A stretch of 64,000 nucleotides of DNA from Promethearchaeati archaeon. Its GTDB lineage: Archaea; Asgardarchaeota; Heimdallarchaeia; Heimdallarchaeales; Heimdallarchaeaceae. Location: contig JABLTJ010000002.1 in NCBI GenBank assembly GCA_013166775.1, positions 78,264 through 142,263 on the forward strand. The letters are read 5' to 3'. The position numbers and the translations under genes are program-made. A model generated the notes under the pieces. It ran no database searches. It was not told the origin of the DNA and saw only the letters and a list, made by a program, of their open reading frames with translations. Below, piece by piece: positions 6,975-60,129 of this stretch (the first letter of the stretch is position 1; each line of letters opens with the position of its first letter).

Positions 6975-8167
6975 TTTTTACCCTCCACCATTCGACTGAC
7001 CAATTCAGCTATATCAATTACTTCAACATCCATTTCTCTTTGTTTAATTCCTTGTTGAATAGTATCTAAACAAGTTGGACACCCATTAACAACAATGTTA
7101 GCTTCTGAATATTGAATTTCAGATATTAGGTGGGAATTGACTTGTCCAACTAATTCTTCATCATTTAGTTTTAGTAAACCACCTCCTCCACAACAAAGTG
7201 ATTCTTCCCTATTAGATGGTAGTTCTTCATATCTGACATTAGGAATGTTTTTGATTACTTCCCTTGGAGCATCACTTAATCCACAATGTCTCACTAGTTC
7301 ACATGGATCTTTGAATGTTATTTTTTCTTTAATTGGATTAATTACTTTCAGTTTCTTTTCTTCGAAAAGTTCATTTGCTAATTCAGAAATATGAACTACT
7401 TCGATATCCCACTCTTCACCCAAGACTCTGGGGTAAACTATTTTGAAAGCTCTATAACATCCTGCACAAGCTGTAACTACTTTCTTAACACCAAGTTTCT
7501 TGAATTGATCTAAGTTATGTTTTGCGAAAGTCTTCCCAACGGAAAAACCACCAGCTAAGAAAATTGGAGAACCACAACACCTTTCTTCAGTTCCTAAGAT
7601 AGTGAAGTTTAATTTTGCTTTTCTAAGAATCTTAACAACGCTTTCTGCTATACTTCCCATTTTACCAGAATATGAGGCTTGACATCCCACGAAATACGCT
7701 AAAGGTGCTTTCTTTTGCGTTCGTCTAGACATATTCATACCACTTAATGCTGCCCAAGAAACTCTTTCTTCAGTAGGTAGCCCAAAAATATTAAAGAAAT
7801 CTTTTACTCTGTTATAGAGAGATAAGAGTTTGGGATTCCATCTTCCTCTTTTGAATGCTTCTTGTCTTATCTGTTCCCAAACTTTCAACAAAGGAAGATC
7901 AACAATACAGATGTCTTCACAAGCACGACATGCAGTACAAAGGAATACGCTTTCAAATAGCTGTTTAGAGACGTCGTTTCTCAACTTGTCCTTTATTTCT
8001 TCTGAATAATATAGTTTAATCTGATCCAAAATCCCTCTTGGATGATTAACCTCCCATTTAAGTTCCTTATAGGTCGGACATAATGAACAATAACCACAAT
8101 ATACACATTTTTGTGCTACATCCAATACATCTACTTGCCAACCTTGTAGAGAACTCATCTGCAACAA
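6971..8167 (-). CDS. Fe-S oxidoreductase with 2x4Fe-4S and CCG domains (GlcF/HdrD/LutA-like)
   Basis: Ferredoxin-type motifs CVYCGYCSLCP and CTACRACEDIC, and CCG cysteine motifs CCGSP and CCGGGG. Confidence 0.75.
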   Translation of the reverse strand: MLQMSSLQGWQVDVLDVAQKCVYCGYCSLCPTYKELKWEVNHPRGILDQIKLYYSEEIKDKLRNDVSKQLFESVFLCTACRACEDICIVDLPLLKVWEQIRQEAFKRGRWNPKLLSLYNRVKDFFNIFGLPTEERVSWAALSGMNMSRRTQKKAPLAYFVGCQASYSGKMGSIAESVVKILRKAKLNFTILGTEERCCGSPIFLAGGFSVGKTFAKHNLDQFKKLGVKKVVTACAGCYRAFKIVYPRVLGEEWDIEVVHISELANELFEEKKLKVINPIKEKITFKDPCELVRHCGLSDAPREVIKNIPNVRYEELPSNREESLCCGGGGLLKLNDEELVGQVNSHLISEIQYSEANIVVNGCPTCLDTIQQGIKQREMDVEVIDIAELVSRMVEGKK

Positions 8168-10642: not shown

Positions 10643-11998
10643 ATGAATAATTCCGATGAAGTGCTAGAGAAACTACTTGGAAAGAGCTTCACTCAAAATA
10701 CAATTTTACACAGAATTAAAGACTTATGTCTTTTGGGAAGTAGATTTTCAGGTACAGAGAGTGAGAAAAATGCTCAACAGTATATGATTGATTTTCTTTC
10801 TGAATTGAATGTTAGTAAACAGGAGTATGAATTCGAATACCAAGGTTGGTGGAGAGGAGCGTGTAATTTCTATATAAGAACTGATGCGAAAAGAGAATTT
10901 CCTGCTATTTCTTTAGTTCTAGCACCTTCAACTCCAGATGAAGGAACTAAAGGAAGAATCATAGATTGTGGAGGAGGGTCGGTAACAGAAATGAACCGAT
11001 TGAAGGAAATTATACCTGGAAATATCGCAATGGTTCATTCTGGGAATACTGAGGAAGGTTGGTTGCATAGAAGGATAAAATATGCAAATGCGTACAAGTT
11101 CGGTGCGAGTGGATTCATATTTGCAAATCATAATCCAGGTCAATTATTTCCAACTGGAAGTGTTAGATCAAATCGAATAGGTGAGATACCAGCAATTGGA
11201 ATATCAAAAGAATCTTACGAATACATAAAAGAAATGATGAATAGATATGAAGATGTAACAGGAAAAATAACAGTTTACAACAATTATGAAAATACAACTT
11301 CTAAACATATTATTTGGGAAATACCAGGAGTACAAAAGGACGAAGTAATTATTATTGGTGGTCACTATGATGGTCATGATATTGCTCAAGGAGCAACAGA
11401 TAATGCTGCGTCTATAGCTGTTTTATTAGAACTAACAAAATTGATGGTTGAGAATAATTATGTTCCTTATAGGACAATTCGATTTATTGCCTTTGCAGTA
11501 GAAGAATTCGGTGTAGTGGGTTCGAACATTCTTGTCAATGATAAAGGAGTGAAAAACATTGTTGCTATGATTAATTTCGATGGTTTAGTAGGTCACATCC
11601 CCAAGCATATTGCTTGTAATGGATATGAGGAACTGTACAAAGCAATGTTGAAATTAAAAGAGGAATTACTCTATGAGCCAAAAATTTCAAAGAGTATTAT
11701 TACAGCAAGCGATAATTTTCCATATATGTGCAAAGGAATACCAAATTTCTGTGTATATGGAGAGAAACCTGACCCAAGAGCTGGAAGAGGATATGGTCAT
11801 ACATCTGCAGACACCTTTGATAAGATTTCCAAAGTAGATGCGAAACTGTCACTAGCTTTTGCATTAGTATTCATTGATAAATTTAGTAAGTTAGCTGAAT
11901 TACCAAAGAGATTATCAGATTCCGAAGTAGTGAAAATACTTAGAGATGCTAAATTGGAAGAGAATCTGAAATTACTAGAAAAATGGCCTTTCAAGTAA
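10643..11998 (+). CDS. M28 family metallo-aminopeptidase (with PA-like insert)
   Basis: Zinc-ligand motifs HYDGHD and DNAASIAVLLEL, EEFG and DGLVGH. Confidence 0.75.
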   Translation: MNNSDEVLEKLLGKSFTQNTILHRIKDLCLLGSRFSGTESEKNAQQYMIDFLSELNVSKQEYEFEYQGWWRGACNFYIRTDAKREFPAISLVLAPSTPDEGTKGRIIDCGGGSVTEMNRLKEIIPGNIAMVHSGNTEEGWLHRRIKYANAYKFGASGFIFANHNPGQLFPTGSVRSNRIGEIPAIGISKESYEYIKEMMNRYEDVTGKITVYNNYENTTSKHIIWEIPGVQKDEVIIIGGHYDGHDIAQGATDNAASIAVLLELTKLMVENNYVPYRTIRFIAFAVEEFGVVGSNILVNDKGVKNIVAMINFDGLVGHIPKHIACNGYEELYKAMLKLKEELLYEPKISKSIITASDNFPYMCKGIPNFCVYGEKPDPRAGRGYGHTSADTFDKISKVDAKLSLAFALVFIDKFSKLAELPKRLSDSEVVKILRDAKLEENLKLLEKWPFK

Positions 11999-23129: not shown

Positions 23130-24359
23130 ATGAGCGTTGACAGAGAAGGTTTAGAATCCAAAGTAGCCATATTGGGACTCTCACAATCTGGAAAAACTTC
23201 CATCAGACAAGTAATTTTTGAAGGATTTGCTCCAGAATCCACATCGCAGAATCCAGCAACAGTCAGAATTAACAGGAAGTTGTTCAATCTCGCAGGAAGT
23301 TCCATAAACTTATTTGATGTAGGAGGGCAGAGCGCTTATCTAAATGAAGTCTTTCAACAGTATCAAGAAAGAACTTTTTCTGATGTGAAAGCAGTTATCT
23401 TTGTTGTAGATGTATCTGATGCTGCTAACATAATGAGATCTAAATATTATTTTGATCTAACAGTTGAGAATGTCAAAGAGATAAGCAGAACTGCTAAGAT
23501 ATATGTCTTTGCTCACAAAATGGATGTTGTACCTGTCAATAAAAGACAAGCAGTACTTCAATCCATTAAAGATATCTTTGAAATCGATAATATGGAAAAT
23601 GCAGAGATTTATGGTACCTCAATCTTTGAAGATACGCTCTGGGATGCGATGCAGAAGATTCTTGCTTTGGTTTATCCTAAGGATGATAGCAAAACATTAG
23701 AAATCAAAGATGTTGTAGGGGCATATGATTTATCATTTTTAGCTGTATCAACAACTCATGGTCTTGTCCTTTATTCCCAACCAGAAGCTCTTGCAGGAGT
23801 AAATTATGAGAGGTTGAGGAATGAGTTGTCCAACACATTTTTCCCTGGAATGGTAATGGATTATGCAATTTTCTCATTGGGAAACTTTTGTGTTTTTATG
23901 AGGGAAATTGATAATGATTTAGTACTTACTTCAGTTTTTGAACACGGTCCTGATCTGGGTGATACTCGTAGTAAATTCCTAGAACTTAGTGGAAAGATAA
24001 TGCAAATCTTCCAACCTGATGAATTAATAGGACAAGCAAAGGCAAAGATGAAATCAACTCTATCAAAATACTTAGAAAATAACAAAGTAAGAGAGATAGC
24101 TACTCTTGAACGAAGGTTCGATGTTAAAGTGAATGTCAAGTGTGATATTTGTGGAAAACAAGTTCAAAAATCGATTCTAGATGTAGCTGTAGAAAATTCT
24201 GAAAAACTTGAAAGAGGAATAAAAATTACTGCAGGATTTGGAGTAACAACAATTGAGATGTATCCTATACATGAATGTATAGAAGGAATGAGAGAAATTC
24301 CAGTTTTCCTAGATAGTGATCTTGAATATAGAAGATATGATAACAGTAGACCAATCTGA
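23130..24359 (+). CDS. Rag/Gtr1-like GTPase with C-terminal roadblock domain and terminal zinc ribbon
   Basis: G1 GLSQSGKTS, G3 DVGGQ, and the RagA/Gtr1-type G4 HKMD. The C-terminal domain is roadblock-like, and CDICGKQ sits at the end. Confidence 0.7.
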   Translation: MSVDREGLESKVAILGLSQSGKTSIRQVIFEGFAPESTSQNPATVRINRKLFNLAGSSINLFDVGGQSAYLNEVFQQYQERTFSDVKAVIFVVDVSDAANIMRSKYYFDLTVENVKEISRTAKIYVFAHKMDVVPVNKRQAVLQSIKDIFEIDNMENAEIYGTSIFEDTLWDAMQKILALVYPKDDSKTLEIKDVVGAYDLSFLAVSTTHGLVLYSQPEALAGVNYERLRNELSNTFFPGMVMDYAIFSLGNFCVFMREIDNDLVLTSVFEHGPDLGDTRSKFLELSGKIMQIFQPDELIGQAKAKMKSTLSKYLENNKVREIATLERRFDVKVNVKCDICGKQVQKSILDVAVENSEKLERGIKITAGFGVTTIEMYPIHECIEGMREIPVFLDSDLEYRRYDNSRPI

Positions 24360-26207
24360 TTATTCTTCTTGTTCTTCTGTTTCTTTAATTTCTTTATTAT
24401 TTGTCGCTCCTTTTGTTAAGAAATCTGACATACTTTTGATTGCTTCCTTTGAAAAAATGCCTTCAGGAACTTCATCTTTTGTTTTCATTAAGAAACTAGC
24501 AAAACCTTTGATATCATTTGCGTCGAATTCGATTTGAGCAGAAGCTTCTTCAGATACTGCTGCGATTTCTTGTGCTGGTTCCTCTTCTGAAGTAACTTCC
24601 ATTTCTCCATTTACAAATGTTCCAGTTTCTTGTATCAGCTCTTCAGTTACTTCTGATTTTCCTTCTAAAACAGTTTCCACTTCACCTGGATCAGGAATTT
24701 CTAGAATCTCACTCAGACCAGCAGCTAGTTCTCCTTTAAGCTCAGAATCTACTGGTTTATCAGATGCAATCTTTGGAACTGAATCAGGAACTGCAACTGG
24801 CTCTATTACTTTTGGAGGAGCAGGTGTTTCTACTTCTTTAGCAGGTTCAGAAAAAGGTTCTGGTTTGACTTCAACTTGAATTTCAGGAATAATCTCAGGA
24901 GCTTCTTCAGTGGAAGTTTCTTCAACAAACTCTAGAGAAGTTTCAGCCATAATTTCTACAGGAGTCTCCTCAAGGGGTATGTCTTCTGTTGATTCTACTT
25001 GTGCTACTTCTATTGGAATTACTGCAGGAGTTGGTGCTTCTGTAGCAACTTCAGCTAATGTCTCAACAGCAGCTTCAACAGGTGCTGCAACTGCAGGAGG
25101 TTTCTCTATTTTTGTCTCAATTTCCCCTGTTGATTGAGCAAATTTGAATATTAGTTCATAGAGAATTTCCTTTTTCTGATCTGTAATCTCCGAAAATGAT
25201 GTGACTAGAAGAAAATTGGTTGCTAGATTAAAGATCATTCCGTGTACAGTTCGATCTGCAGAAGAAATAATACTTCCAGTAGAATCAATATCATCTCCTA
25301 AATCCTTTATCTGATTTTTAAGGTGATGTAGTCCAATTAGATAGTCCATTGATTTTTCGATGTTCACATTAGACTGCGAGGAAGCTCCGATAATTGGAGA
25401 ATAGGTTGCTTTATCAATTAAAACCATTTCGACAATGTCATATTCAGTAAGATCAAACTCTAAATCTAATTTGCCAAAAGTTGGAAGAATAGGTTCAGGT
25501 TCTGGATTCAAGAACTCTCTTAACTGTTTTATTCTAGGATCTTCTTGATGTTCCATAACATAGCTTTGGAATTCATTGCTTTGTTCAACTGCTTCACCAA
25601 CATTTGATACTAACTCGAATCTTCTAGTGTCAATACCAGATTCTTTCATAACGGTGAACATTAAATCTTTGAGACTTTCATAATAGTAAATACTAGTATT
25701 CTCAAATTCTATCTCGAAACGAGGATCATCGAACAGTTCTCGAATATGTTGATGAATTACTACCATTCTTTCAGGAGTAACTAAATCCACCTTATGACAG
25801 AGAACGGTAATATGGCCTTCAGGATTCTCTTTGACATATTGACGAATAGTAAAACTAAATCTTCTTTCTGATTCTTCAAAAAGTTCAGGTTGAGTGACAT
25901 CAACAACCCATACTAGAAGTTTCACATTGGAAAAAACAAGATGTCTAAAATGCGTAACAGCTTCATTCCAGTAGCTCTCTTGTCCTCCAGAATCGATAAC
26001 TAAACTCTTTTTTTCCTCATCAATAAAGTGACGTTGATAATGAACTGTAGCCATATAATCTTCTGCATCAGCAGGTTTTTTATCGAAAAAGACAACATCT
26101 TTTATTGCTGTCTTCCCTGCTGACTGTAAACCCATGAGAAGGATTTTATCCTCTACAGCAGGTGCATCTGATTTATCTTTGTATAATTCATCGAATAAGT
26201 AGGACAC
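24360..26207 (-). CDS. Rag/Gtr2-like GTPase with roadblock-like domain and a long acidic Pro/Glu/Val-rich tail
   Basis: G1 GLQSAGKTA, G3 DSGGQ, and the RagC/Gtr2-type G4 HKVD. It has a roughly 250 aa low-complexity acidic C-terminus. Confidence 0.65.
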   Translation of the reverse strand: MSYLFDELYKDKSDAPAVEDKILLMGLQSAGKTAIKDVVFFDKKPADAEDYMATVHYQRHFIDEEKKSLVIDSGGQESYWNEAVTHFRHLVFSNVKLLVWVVDVTQPELFEESERRFSFTIRQYVKENPEGHITVLCHKVDLVTPERMVVIHQHIRELFDDPRFEIEFENTSIYYYESLKDLMFTVMKESGIDTRRFELVSNVGEAVEQSNEFQSYVMEHQEDPRIKQLREFLNPEPEPILPTFGKLDLEFDLTEYDIVEMVLIDKATYSPIIGASSQSNVNIEKSMDYLIGLHHLKNQIKDLGDDIDSTGSIISSADRTVHGMIFNLATNFLLVTSFSEITDQKKEILYELIFKFAQSTGEIETKIEKPPAVAAPVEAAVETLAEVATEAPTPAVIPIEVAQVESTEDIPLEETPVEIMAETSLEFVEETSTEEAPEIIPEIQVEVKPEPFSEPAKEVETPAPPKVIEPVAVPDSVPKIASDKPVDSELKGELAAGLSEILEIPDPGEVETVLEGKSEVTEELIQETGTFVNGEMEVTSEEEPAQEIAAVSEEASAQIEFDANDIKGFASFLMKTKDEVPEGIFSKEAIKSMSDFLTKGATNNKEIKETEEQEE

Positions 26208-55598: not shown

Positions 55599-56099
55599 AT
55601 GAAAATGAGTACTGTCTATATTGCTTGTTCTATGATAAGATCTGTAGGAATCGATTTCTCTCTATTAGATATTTTAGAAGAGTGGATAATAAATCAGCAA
55701 CTATTACCTTTTACTCCAGGAAAGATGGAAGATACAAGTCCGGATGTAATTTTCAAAAGAGATATGAAAATGTTGGAAAAATCTGATTTCATTATTGCAG
55801 ACGTCAATGAACCTTCCCATGGAGTTGGGATGGAAATCATGTATGCTTATGAACATGGAATGCCAGTTATTTGTGTACTAAACAAAGAGAACAGACCATT
55901 TTCGAGGATGGTAGATGGGAGTCCTCATGTTTACTTGATTGAATATGAAAACAAAGAAAATCTGAAAACAAAATTAGAAAGAATCAAATTGAAAGATTTA
56001 TTGATAGAATTTTGTGAAACTTGCCAGAATAGAACAATACACTACGAGAAAGTATGTAAAAGATGTAAAAATAAAGGTAACAGCCCCAAGGCGATTTGA
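55599..56099 (+). CDS. nucleoside 2-deoxyribosyltransferase-like protein with C-terminal zinc ribbon
   Basis: HGVGMEIMYAYEHGMPVICV resembles the NDT family active-site region. CETC...CKRC at the C-terminus. The 3' end overlaps a tRNA gene on the other strand. Confidence 0.45.
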   Translation: MKMSTVYIACSMIRSVGIDFSLLDILEEWIINQQLLPFTPGKMEDTSPDVIFKRDMKMLEKSDFIIADVNEPSHGVGMEIMYAYEHGMPVICVLNKENRPFSRMVDGSPHVYLIEYENKENLKTKLERIKLKDLLIEFCETCQNRTIHYEKVCKRCKNKGNSPKAI

Positions 56100-56152
56100 A
56101 CGCCTGCCTCAGGATCCAGAGTCCCGTATCCTTCCAACTAGACTATGGGGCT
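56081..56152 (-). tRNA. tRNA-Gln (anticodon CUG), intronless
   Basis: Folds as a cloverleaf by hand. Acceptor AGCCCCA/TGGGGCT, U8, D-loop with GG, anticodon loop CUCUGGA, T-loop TTCAAAT. Confidence 0.7.
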
Positions 56153-57882: not shown

Positions 57883-58004
57883 TTTAAATCCATTAGCTGT
57901 TTTTCGTAAATAAGGTATCTGAATTAAAAATGTATGTTTTCATTTGAGTAAATCTTTAATCACATAAGGTTATTCAAGTATTTATAGAATTTTTAAGAAA
58001 AAGT

Positions 58005-58111
58005 GGCAGTCCTAGGGAGATATTTTCAGGCTTTCCTCGCAAGAAACACCTTTTGAACTCCCGGTGCCAGATTCAAAGTCTGGAGTGTTTCCAGGCTACA
58101 CTATAGGACTG
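58005..58111 (-). tRNA. second tRNA-Gln(UUG)-like gene with a homologous T-loop intron and genomically encoded CCA
   Basis: Acceptor AGTCCTA/TAGGACT, D-stem GTGT/ACAC, anticodon loop CUUUGAA. The T-stem halves GGGAG and CTCCC are separated by 37 nt (TTCAAAAGGTGTTTCTTGCGAGGAAAGCCTGAAAATAT). The 3' end reads GCCA. Confidence 0.55.
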
Positions 58112-58197
58112 TAATGTAAGTCATTCTCTTCTAATACGATTTTAAATTTTTCTCTTTAAACTAAAAAAAATTATGGTAAAAGAAGTAATTACTCTTT

Positions 58198-60129
58198 TCA
58201 ATTACTCTTTTTTGCCCATGTATCTCTTAGTGTTATTATTCTGTTAAAGACTAAGTTTTCTTTTGTGGAATCAACTATATCAATTACAAAGTAGCCATTT
58301 CTTTCGAATTGAAATCTTGATCCTTGTTCCTTATCCTTTAGGAATGGTTCCACATAGGAGTTCAGAATAGTTATAGCATTTGGATTAAGATAATCAGTAA
58401 ACTCTTTACCTTCCTCAGTTTCCATTGGATTCTCTTTTGTATACATCCTATCATATAATCTTACTTCGGCTTCTAAGGCACTATCTGCTGATAACCAATG
58501 AATAGTTCCTTGCACCTTTCTTCCATCTGGGGATTCTCCTCCTTTACTTTCGGGATCATAGGTGCAATGGATTTCAATTATATCTCCTGTTTCTCTATCT
58601 TTAACTACATTTTCACACTTTACGAAATAAGCATATTTCAGTCTGATTTCTTTTCCTGGAGAAAGACGATAATAATCTTCGGGAGGATTTTCCATGAAAT
58701 CTTCCTTTTCAATATAGAGGTTTTTTGTAAAGTTAACTTTTCTAGTCCCCATTTCCTTATCAGAAGGGTGATTTGGTACAGTAAATTCCTCTATTTTATC
58801 ATTAGGGAAATTTGTGATAACAAGTTTGATTGGATTAATTACACTCATTACTCGTGGGCATCTTTTATCCAAATCATCTCGAATGTAGTGCTCAAAGATT
58901 GACATATCTATTAGTTTATCTCGCTTAGTGAAATTTATTGCTAATGAGAAATTACGTATAGCTTCAGGAGTTATCCCTCGTCGTCTCATACCTGCGATTG
59001 TTAACATCAATGGATCATCCCATCCTTTAACATAACCCTCTTCAACGAGCATACGTAAACGTCTTTTACTTCCCACCATATATGTGAGATTCATTTTCGC
59101 AAACTCTATTTGTTGAGGATGGAAAATAGGATTACCATCTTCATCGTCTAGTTGATCCAAATACCAATCATAGAGAAGTCTATGGACTTCAAATTCCAAA
59201 GTACATATTGAATGAGTTATTCCTTCTATTGAATCTTCCAAACCATGAGCCCAATCATACATTGGATAAATGCACCACTTATCACCAGTATTAGGATGAT
59301 GAGCATGAAGTATTCTATACACTATAGGATCTCGCATAAGCATGTTTGGATGAGCCATATCTATTTTTGCGCGGAGAACTTTTTCTCCATCTTTGAATTC
59401 ACCATTTTTCATCCGCTCAAACAAGTCAAGATTCTCTTCAATTGATCTATTTCTGTAAGGGCTTTCTTGTCCAGGTTCTGTTATTGTTCCTCTCATTTCT
59501 CTGATTTCTTCTACACTAGAATCATCTACATACGCTAAACCTTTCTTAATCAGCTGAATAGCATAGTCATATAACTGATCGAAGTAATTGGATGCAAAAA
59601 GCAATCTGTCTTCAAAATCAACTCCTAACCAACGTACATCTGCAGTTATAGATTCAATGAACTCCTCTTCTTCAGTAATAGGGTTTGTGTCATCGAATCT
59701 CAGATTGAATTTCCCACCATATTCCACTGCGAAGTGATAGTTCCTATTTATGGAATAAGCATGACCAATATGTAACCAACCATTTGGTTCAGGAGGAAAA
59801 CGTGTATGAACTCGACCACCATATTTGCCTGTTTTCATATCCTCATTGATTATTGTTCGTATGAAATCGACATCCTCTTCAGTATCTTCTTCTACTTCCT
59901 CCAATAATTCTGGATACTGCTGTTGTGCTAGTTGTTGTATCTCAGATGAGTTTAATGAATTGATGTAACTAACTTTCTTAGCTACAATTGCTTTAATGTT
60001 CTCTATATCCTTTCGCAGTTCAGGATTGGATTTAGCAATTAATCCTATAACTGCTCCAACAACTGCTTCACCATGCTCTAAAGCATTTAGAACGGTGAAC
60101 TTTTCGCACAACTTTTCTAGTGATGTCAT
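58198..60129 (-). CDS. glutaminyl-tRNA synthetase-type class I aaRS (GlnRS / eukaryote-type GlxRS) with an N-terminal appended helical domain
   Basis: HIGH region [26 protein letters not shown], and the MSK region [11 protein letters not shown]...[17 protein letters not shown] closely match GlnRS. It has a roughly 90 aa N-terminal extension. Confidence 0.75.
   Translation of the reverse strand: [643 protein letters not shown]

Follow-up and report, generated by a model that had tools for sequence, protein, structure and literature searches.

A bacterial-type glutaminyl-tRNA synthetase with an archaeal GluRS-like N-terminal domain, encoded beside tRNA-Gln genes in Heimdallarchaeia

Can an archaeon carry a genuine glutaminyl-tRNA synthetase (GlnRS) and, if so, where did the enzyme come from and which tRNAs does it serve? 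The question is raised by a gene, glnS, in a 64,000-nucleotide (nt) stretch of contig JABLTJ010000002.1 from a member of the Heimdallarchaeaceae, a stretch that we call the window throughout. Reviews up to 2022 state that no archaeon, or almost none, encodes GlnRS, and they explain this absence by archaeal tRNA-Gln, whose A73 and A1:U72 are orthogonal to the bacterial and eukaryotic enzymes (PMC9499178, PMC8762117). The only mention of Heimdallarchaeia that we found is a passing remark in a preprint on GlnRS lying next to cox genes in Hodarchaeales and Kariarchaeaceae, and our literature search on GlnRS, GatD and GatE in Heimdall and Asgard archaea found no dedicated study. The presence of the gene is already known, by way of automatic NCBI annotations (the identical protein is NPD87509.1, labelled ‘Asgard group archaeon’). 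What is new, as far as the literature is searchable, is its bacterial ancestry, its chimeric architecture, its linkage to tRNA genes, including a hidden intron-containing one, and a polymorphism at the discriminator base. In brief, we consider it highly probable that the gene encodes a functional chimeric GlnRS, with a body transferred from bacteria and an N-terminal domain (N-domain) taken from archaeal glutamyl-tRNA synthetase (GluRS), which charges the host’s own tRNA-Gln with glutamine.

Is the protein really a GlnRS? The answer is yes: it is a genuine, intact GlnRS and not an archaeal GluRS, just as the initial annotation had read it from motif peptides that are indeed present at amino acids (aa) 109–124, 141–150 and 351–385, and whose quoted E. 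coli counterparts agree with the alignment to PDB 1o0b. The glnS equivalog model TIGR00440 matches aa 107–640 over its whole length (profile positions 1–524 of 524) with 700.1 bits against a cut-off of 425.8, whereas the archaeal gltX models stay under theirs (TIGR00463 at 386.9 against 401.75 bits, and PRK04156 at 365 against 516). The best PDB matches are the GlnRS of P. aeruginosa (1e-199) and E. coli (1e-195), followed by eukaryotic GlnRS (1e-119) and archaeal GluRS (1e-64), and the bit scores fall in the same way from bacterial GlnRS (629–668) through eukaryotic GlnRS (~370–400) and eukaryotic GluRS (~250) to archaeal GluRS (222). Both class I motifs are in place, HIGH at aa 120–123 and a KMSKS-type loop, VGSKR, at aa 352–356, aligned to VMSKR of E. 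coli. In E. coli numbering, none of the 35 non-redundant members of the clade departs from R30, Y211, C229 and Q255 in the glutamine pocket or from R341, R402, Q517, E519 and R520 among the anticodon-binding residues, while R410 is arginine in 33 members and lysine in two. Of the pocket residues, C229 and Q255 are the ones that differ in GluRS and that were reportedly mutated in the E. coli enzyme to switch its specificity; PDB 2rd2 is a C229R mutant. The structural picture is the same, since a full-length AlphaFold2 (AF2) model (pLDDT 90.6) superposes in Foldseek on the E. coli GlnRS-tRNA complexes 4jxz and 4jyz with a TM-score of 0.98, a root-mean-square deviation (rmsd) of 1.3 Å and 52–53% identity, and on bacterial GlnRS structures in general with target-normalised TM-scores of 0.95–0.98 and rmsd values of 1.3–1.9 Å. 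In addition, the ratio of non-synonymous to synonymous substitution rates (dN/dS) in the core is ~0.05, with dS near saturation, which means strong purifying selection.

Where, then, does the enzyme come from? A protein search returned ~55 full-length relatives of ~640 aa, 59–88% identical and all with the N-terminal extension and, where named, from Heimdallarchaeota, Heimdallarchaeaceae, Heimdallarchaeum or ‘Gerdarchaeota’; two of them are labelled Bathyarchaeia and Pacearchaeota and may be mis-binned. These relatives make up a clade confined to Heimdallarchaeia, to which the closed Ca. Heimdallarchaeum chromosome contributes a member. The next-best matches are bacterial proteins of ~562 aa, 62–65% identical and without the extension, with Chloroflexi, Anaerolineales and Dehalococcoidia nearest. 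We built a neighbour-joining (NJ) tree from 534 trimmed columns of 232 sequences (35 Heimdall, 153 bacterial, 70 of these from named genomes, and 44 eukaryotic-type), in which Heimdall taxa are sparsely sampled, from named records. The Heimdall clade was monophyletic in 200 of 200 bootstraps, and in every one of them it joined some of the bacteria while all eukaryotes and no fewer than 30 of the remaining bacteria stayed outside (198 when at least 60 other bacteria had to be excluded). Bacteria plus Heimdall split from eukaryotes in 168. A placement within GluRS, which would have counted against the initial annotation, did not occur; the tree has no GluRS outgroup. As for wider sampling, a scan of genome contigs with the full protein, saturated by the universal motif DKWCIYPM, recovered 78 bacterial and two Heimdall loci and so maps the bacterial relatives rather than the Heimdall distribution, and a metagenome scan with a tighter alignment recovered six loci.

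The initial annotation had suggested that the gene bears on the origin of eukaryotic GlnRS, and one might indeed see in it an archaeal forerunner or sister of the eukaryotic enzyme, with an N-domain ancestral to the GatB-like eukaryotic one. The attraction is plain, as no archaeal class is closer to eukaryotes than the host's, the appended domain is N-terminal, as in eukaryotic GlnRS, and the depositors of PDB 3aii, an archaeal GluRS, named its N-terminus a ‘YQEY domain’. However, not one of the 200 bootstraps placed the Heimdall clade with eukaryotic GlnRS, and all 14 discriminating indels (five eukaryote-specific insertion blocks and nine bacteria-specific blocks) are in the bacterial state. 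The PDB bit scores are 650–667 for bacterial and ~400 for eukaryotic GlnRS, and the searches of the N-domain described below gave neither a eukaryotic nor a GatB/YqeY signal. We therefore regard an origin of the eukaryotic enzyme from, or as a sister of, this lineage as very improbable, and our data lend no support to an archaeal origin of eukaryotic GlnRS.

The simplest reading of the sequence evidence is instead a single transfer from bacteria to Heimdallarchaeia, because the clade is nested in bacterial GlnRS, shows bacterial indel states and has Chloroflexota as its nearest relatives. At least 80% of Heimdall sequences carry an insertion of 5–8 aa at a site where bacteria and eukaryotes have none; in the window it reads DDEDGNPI (aa 328–335, nt ~59125–59148), after E. 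coli position 247 and just before the Q255 strand. A screen for columns conserved in bacteria and altered in the Heimdall clade gave three minor positions. Where E. coli has D235, a residue in contact with G3:C70, the clade has V, I or N and never D; we considered the change of D235 to V as an adaptation and dropped the idea, as some bacteria also vary there. Quite separately, two high-scoring GlnRS representatives in the tree (P0123 and P0125; 52% identity) have an N-terminal extension of ~220 aa, in one of them with a GST_C-like match and not the eukaryotic R1/R2 domains; they fall among the bacterial sequences, and their bacterial-type GlnRS probably serves eukaryotes or organelles.

A bacterial ancestry also creates a dating problem. 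Bacterial GlnRS is classically held to descend from eukaryotic GlnRS. The Heimdall clade spans several families and yet is nested in bacterial GlnRS, so that there are two ways out: lateral spread of the gene from one Heimdall lineage to another at a time when eukaryotes already existed, or a revision of the accepted eukaryote-to-bacteria direction and its timing.

Given a core that is 62–65% identical to GlnRS of Chloroflexota, and several database entries without the extension, a sceptic may ask whether we are looking at a bacterial contaminant, a chimeric assembly or an N-terminal extension made by gene calling. We give this virtually no credence. The 217,890-bp contig that carries glnS also encodes actin, two Gtr1/RagA GTPases, NucS, RIO1 kinase and an archaeal prepilin peptidase, so that Asgard signature genes stand on it alongside archaeal intron-containing tRNAs. 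The base composition of glnS is the host’s, with a GC content of 35.4% and a third-position GC content (GC3) of 25.6% against 33.5 ± 1.8% and 22.5 ± 2.6% in the other 28 open reading frames (ORFs) of the window, that is, about one standard deviation off. An orthologue lies in the closed 3.33-Mb chromosome CP084167.1 of Ca. Heimdallarchaeum endolithica, among genes for a tRNA-splicing endonuclease, Alba, NucS, diacylglycerol kinase, a P-type ATPase and ZnuA/ABC-3 components, several of which recur in the window as partial synteny. Asgard genes on the contig, host-level GC and an orthologue in a closed chromosome thus exclude contamination and mis-binning. Nor does a gene-calling artefact sit well with more than 50 orthologues, conserved synteny and an in-frame N-domain under purifying selection, and the ‘short’ entries turn out to begin at internal Met residues within the N-domain or the linker.

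What is this N-domain? The initial annotation was right that a domain is appended, since ~87 aa precede the bacterial GlnRS start and PDB matches begin only at query residues 83–88, and it had likened this domain to the N-domain of eukaryotic GlnRS and to GatB/YqeY; the first likeness is not supported, and the second went undetected in our searches. Pfam finds no match in the protein to the eukaryotic N-domains PF04558 and PF04557, which are present in 6 of 6 eukaryotic-type representatives checked, and GatB/YqeY likeness went undetected by Pfam, by Foldseek in the PDB and by hhalign against the C-terminal YqeY tails of Deinococcus-type bacterial GlnRS (probability 1.6%). The name given by the depositors of 3aii is thus a likeness to GatB/YqeY that is unconfirmed here. 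What a profile of 28 Heimdall N-domains did find, as its sole significant match in the PDB, was residues 1–72 of 3aii itself, the non-discriminating GluRS (ND-GluRS) of M. thermautotrophicus (Mth), with E = 2.1e-15 and 38% identity. The N-domain is, on this sequence evidence, homologous to the N-terminus of archaeal GluRS and not to the eukaryotic GlnRS N-domain. The same homology accounts for the TIGR00463 alignment starting as early as query residue 7 in a long match that spans aa 7–626. The profile search also picked up N-terminal fragments of archaeal GluRS (for example, from Methanobrevibacter) that run on into RFAPNPSGPLHIGHAR, and a KYPELL motif is common to the Heimdall N-domain and some of these fragments; searches with the N-domain alone, or with its alignment to the Mth GluRS N-terminus, gave short fragments only and no full-length Asgard GluRS.

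The model of the N-domain has five helices (pLDDT 85.7). An acidic linker, varying among orthologues in sequence and length, connects it to the core, which it joins exactly at the bacterial GlnRS start, in an xFIRxII helix. Every member of the clade has the domain, all bacterial relatives examined lack it, and it evolves with a dN/dS of ~0.2, again indicating purifying selection, though with dS saturated. Extensions of some tblastn matches into query residues 41–60 at bacterial loci proved spurious, as those proteins have short N-terminal tails only.

How might such a protein have come about, and why would it need its archaeal part? We propose that an ancestor within Heimdallarchaeia gained the catalytic and anticodon-binding body by horizontal transfer from bacteria, with Chloroflexota-like organisms as the nearest living relatives, and that after transfer this body would have been fused at its N-terminus to a helical domain of ~76 aa, the one with which archaeal ND-GluRS normally begins, by way of an acidic and flexible linker. 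The enzyme would then charge host tRNA-Gln directly with glutamine. The borrowed domain may help a bacterial enzyme to handle archaeal tRNA-Gln, with its A1:U72 and normally A73, either by adding affinity for the tRNA or by docking to an archaeal partner. Its source would be the one archaeal synthetase that already binds tRNA-Gln, and its role would parallel that of the appended domains of Deinococcus and eukaryotic GlnRS.

Is there anything at the locus itself that ties the enzyme to tRNA-Gln? There is, and here too the initial annotation was borne out in placing the gene next to a tRNA-Gln cluster in an Asgard archaeon. A tRNA-Gln(UUG) gene starts 87 nt past the glnS stop codon, and tRNA-Gln(CUG) lies 2 kb further on. 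ARAGORN and Rfam see a single tRNA in the window, the second of these: the UUG gene is hidden by its intron, so that Rfam misses the genomic form even at E ≤ 0.1 and ARAGORN misses the unspliced form too. We found it by way of a related locus, L002, in which a UUG gene directly follows glnS. Once spliced, the sequence folds as a cloverleaf and is called tRNA-Gln(ttg) by ARAGORN; the intron lies after T-loop position 59, and the 5' exon matches its orthologue over 59 nt in blastn. In a metagenomic relative, L091, a homologous intron of 32 nt occupies the equivalent position (~2183–2213), and its hairpin shows compensatory changes. The intron of L093/L094 is in the anticodon loop (L094, ~7034–7061), and the other orthologues have none; these differing sites imply that introns were gained, lost or moved recently.

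Upstream of tRNA-Gln(UUG), a TATA-like element, AGAAAAATTTAAAAT, is kept in the window, L002, L091, L093 and L094, and its conservation suggests that the tRNA gene has its own, putative promoter there. Between this box and the tRNA gene, L002 (~11965–11990), L091, L093 and L094 share a hairpin, GGTTGTCAAAGAAxTTTGACAA, that the window does not have. The order of the genes is conserved: glnS, then tRNA-Gln(UUG) ~70–140 nt downstream on the same strand, then tRNA-Gln(CUG) 0.3–4 kb further, in the window, L002, L007, L008, L087, L088/L089 and L093/L094, with L091 showing glnS followed by tRNA-Gln(UUG). Linkage of glnS to tRNA-Gln genes is thus conserved in one subclade, whose GlnRS proteins (those of L002, L007, L008, L087, L088/L089 and L094) are 67–86% identical to the window’s.

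These tRNAs differ at the discriminator base. In the window both isoacceptors have G73. The two closest relatives, L087 and L088/L089 (GlnRS 86% and 84% identical to the window’s), have A73 in tRNA-Gln(UUG) and G73 in tRNA-Gln(CUG), and the more distant L007, L094, L002 and L008 (79%, 78%, 74% and 67%) have A73 in both; L091 has A73 in tRNA-Gln(UUG), and its CUG gene is not on the contig. All of these genes keep the archaeal A1:U72 pair, and all contain G2:C71, G10, U35 and G36, which together with G73 are experimentally validated identity elements of bacterial GlnRS (PMC9976931). A73, for its part, is the archaeal state of tRNA-Gln and part of the barrier to acquiring GlnRS (PMC9499178). The pattern across loci fits a stepwise switch from A73 to G73 in the window’s lineage, which we read as a co-adaptation to GlnRS or an antideterminant against GluRS: G73 may improve charging by the former or block mis-glutamylation by the latter.

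What does the enzyme do for its host? It probably makes Gln-tRNA-Gln directly in vivo, either replacing transamidation by way of GluRS and GatDE or working alongside it. The bolder version, namely that a whole branch of Heimdallarchaeia has replaced GluRS/GatDE by the chimeric GlnRS, and that the window’s lineage is rewriting the identity of its tRNA-Gln from A73 to G73, starting with the CUG isoacceptor and going on to the UUG one, we put forward tentatively, as a proposal about which our doubts still outweigh our confidence. Several points do weigh against our interpretation, and they are best taken together. The tree is distance-based and has no GluRS outgroup, and the immediate sister of the Heimdall clade is poorly resolved (an uncultured Chloroflexi sequence in 42 of 200 bootstraps, then Anaerolineales). 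The linkage of glnS to tRNA-Gln is absent in L003, L005 and the Heimdallarchaeum chromosome. The homologue of the N-domain is disordered in the crystal of archaeal GluRS (3aii), and the role that we propose for the domain, like direct charging, is a prediction. No gatD, gatE or separate gltX lies within the 64-kb window or its 10-kb flanks, the DNA that our search covered. Finally, most orthologous loci keep A73, so that the clade’s enzyme does not need G73; evidently it accepts A73, and the change to G73 may be neutral drift.

Could the enzyme be a redundant or specialised paralogue, with GluRS and GatDE as the main route and GlnRS confined to a side role in condition-specific charging, the handling of tRNA-like RNAs or regulation? 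Some of the evidence leans that way: most linked tRNA-Gln genes keep the GatDE-type combination of A1:U72 and A73, related clusters contain odd tRNA-like genes with aberrant anticodon loops, and the preprint places GlnRS beside cox genes in other Heimdallarchaeia. A mere side role is hard to square with the strong purifying selection on the core, with catalytic and anticodon-recognition residues that are invariant, with retention of the gene across many Heimdall lineages, or with the fact that both glutamine isoacceptors of the window have shifted to the identity base of bacterial GlnRS, and we consider it unlikely.

The odd tRNA-like genes deserve a description of their own. In the closest relatives one lies between tRNA-Gln(UUG) and tRNA-Gln(CUG) (L087 6726–6801, L088 8180–8254 and L089 3187–3261), with normal acceptor, D and T arms and an aberrant 8-nt anticodon loop that reads UCUUCGGG in L087 and GUUUAGGC in L088; the L087 gene has an A1.G72 mismatch in addition, and ARAGORN reports these genes as tRNA-???. 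There is a known parallel in mascRNA, which is tRNA-like, lacks an anticodon loop and binds eukaryotic GlnRS (PMC9976931). Some kilobases downstream of the cluster, L007 (13615–13690, + strand) and L002 (16235–16311, + strand) have tRNA-Gln-like genes that are 89.6% identical to each other and without counterpart in the window. The L007 copy is a clean cloverleaf with the loop AUUUAUU, an anticodon, UUA, that would read the UAA stop codon, and an A73-CCA end, and its L002 homologue has an 8-nt loop, AUAUUUAU. Such genes may encode tRNAs for suppression or quadruplet decoding, or they may be copies in decay.

The features of the window are collected in Table 1. Two further gene pairs lie well away from glnS. 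The Gtr1/RagA-family small GTPase genes are convergent and abutting, one of their products is 615 aa with a long C-terminal extension, and both are typical Asgard eukaryotic signature proteins. The two tandem giant ORFs are essentially without Pfam matches, apart from one marginal Ig-like Big_13 match in the second.

Table 1. Coordinates of the features discussed, in positions of the 64,000-nt window
Feature	Position	Strand	Basis or remark
glnS	58198..60129	-	ORF, 643 aa, ATG start; bacterial-type core plus archaeal GluRS-type N-domain
N-terminal helical domain, aa 1-76	59902..60129	-	homologue of archaeal ND-GluRS N-terminus
Acidic linker, aa 77-87, predicted disordered	59869..59901	-	pLDDT <50 at residues 78-87 (full-length model)
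Class I catalytic domain, aa 107-420	58870..59811	-	PF00749 at 4.5e-96
Two beta-barrel anticodon-binding domains, aa 424-617 (424-525, 542-617)	58279..58860	-	PF03950 and PF20974
TATA-like A/T-rich element AGAAAAATTTAAAAT	58139..58155	-	~30-45 nt upstream of tRNA-Gln(UUG); putative promoter
tRNA-Gln(UUG), 31-nt T-loop intron, A1:U72, G73	58004..58110	-	sequence and blastn to intron-less orthologues
tRNA-Gln(UUG), 5' exon	58052..58110	-
tRNA-Gln(UUG), intron	58021..58051	-
tRNA-Gln(UUG), 3' exon including CCA	58004..58020	-
tRNA-Gln(CUG), A1:U72, G2:C71, C3:G70, G10, G73, no encoded CCA	56081..56152	-	ARAGORN and Rfam, 59.8 bits
Gtr1/RagA-family GTPase gene	23130..24359	+
Gtr1/RagA-family GTPase gene	24360..26207	-
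Giant ORF, 1591 aa	26316..31091	-
Giant ORF, 1585 aa	31113..35870	-	marginal Big_13 match

Why should specialists in aminoacyl-tRNA synthetases (aaRS) and the genetic code care about this locus? A bacterial-type GlnRS that has become a fixed and conserved chromosomal gene in the archaeal class nearest to eukaryotes contradicts the textbook absence of the enzyme from archaea. Two of its features look like adaptations that overcome the barrier, namely an N-domain borrowed from the resident GluRS and a discriminator base caught in transition among close relatives, so that Heimdallarchaeia may offer a natural experiment in fitting a horizontally acquired synthetase to a foreign tRNA, and a source of candidate orthogonal aaRS/tRNA pairs. 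If the GluRS/GatDE route has truly been replaced, archaea would have their first example of the direct pathway. Some tidying is due in the databases as well, where public annotation of this family is systematically off: 11 records (P0019, P0020, P0034, P0046, P0048, P0054, P0060, P0065, P0066, P0272 and P0299) contain annotation errors, in the form of starts at an internal Met that truncate the N-domain, N-terminal fragments called ‘glutamate--tRNA ligase, partial’, and full-length proteins called ‘GlnRS/YqeY domain fusion’. In the sense in which it is meant, the NCBI name ‘GlnRS/YqeY domain fusion protein’ is wrong, because there is no C-terminal YqeY: the match to PRK14703 (837 bits) covers only profile positions 8–560 of 769, and the protein ends 3 aa past the core.

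How does the Heimdall enzyme compare with the systems that we already know? With bacterial GlnRS (that of E. coli or P. aeruginosa; TIGR00440; PDB 1gtr, 4jxx and 5bnz) it shares the four-domain core, made up of a Rossmann catalytic domain, an acceptor-binding insertion and two beta-barrels, and the likeness extends from 52–53% identity and a TM-score of 0.98 to the same glutamine-binding and anticodon-binding residues and the same indel pattern. It differs in its archaeal host, in the 87 aa of N-domain and linker, in the 5–8-aa insertion around DDEDGNPI, and in the tRNA that it would meet, since Heimdall tRNA-Gln has A1:U72 and C3:G70 or U3:A70, and its E. coli counterpart U1:A72 and G3:C70. 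Deinococcus-type GlnRS (PRK14703; PDB 2hz7) resembles it in combining a bacterial core with a single helical appendage that has no catalytic role and presumably assists in binding the tRNA; however, the Deinococcus-type appendage is the C-terminal GatB_Yqey domain PF02637, found in representative P0122 and absent from the Heimdall protein, whose own appendage is N-terminal and of archaeal GluRS origin. Archaeal ND-GluRS (TIGR00463; 3aii) has in common with it the N-terminal helical domain of ~72–85 aa, the class Ib architecture and beta-barrel anticodon-binding domains, whereas the Heimdall core carries the GlnRS-specific C229 and Q255 and is only 28% identical to 3aii in structural alignment. 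With eukaryotic GlnRS (yeast Gln4 and human QARS) it shares an N-terminal domain appended via a flexible linker and, as we predict here, direct charging with glutamine, but the eukaryotic N-domain (R1/R2; PF04558 and PF04557) belongs to another family and measures ~200–300 aa, and the cores are 33–40% identical, at ~400 bits.

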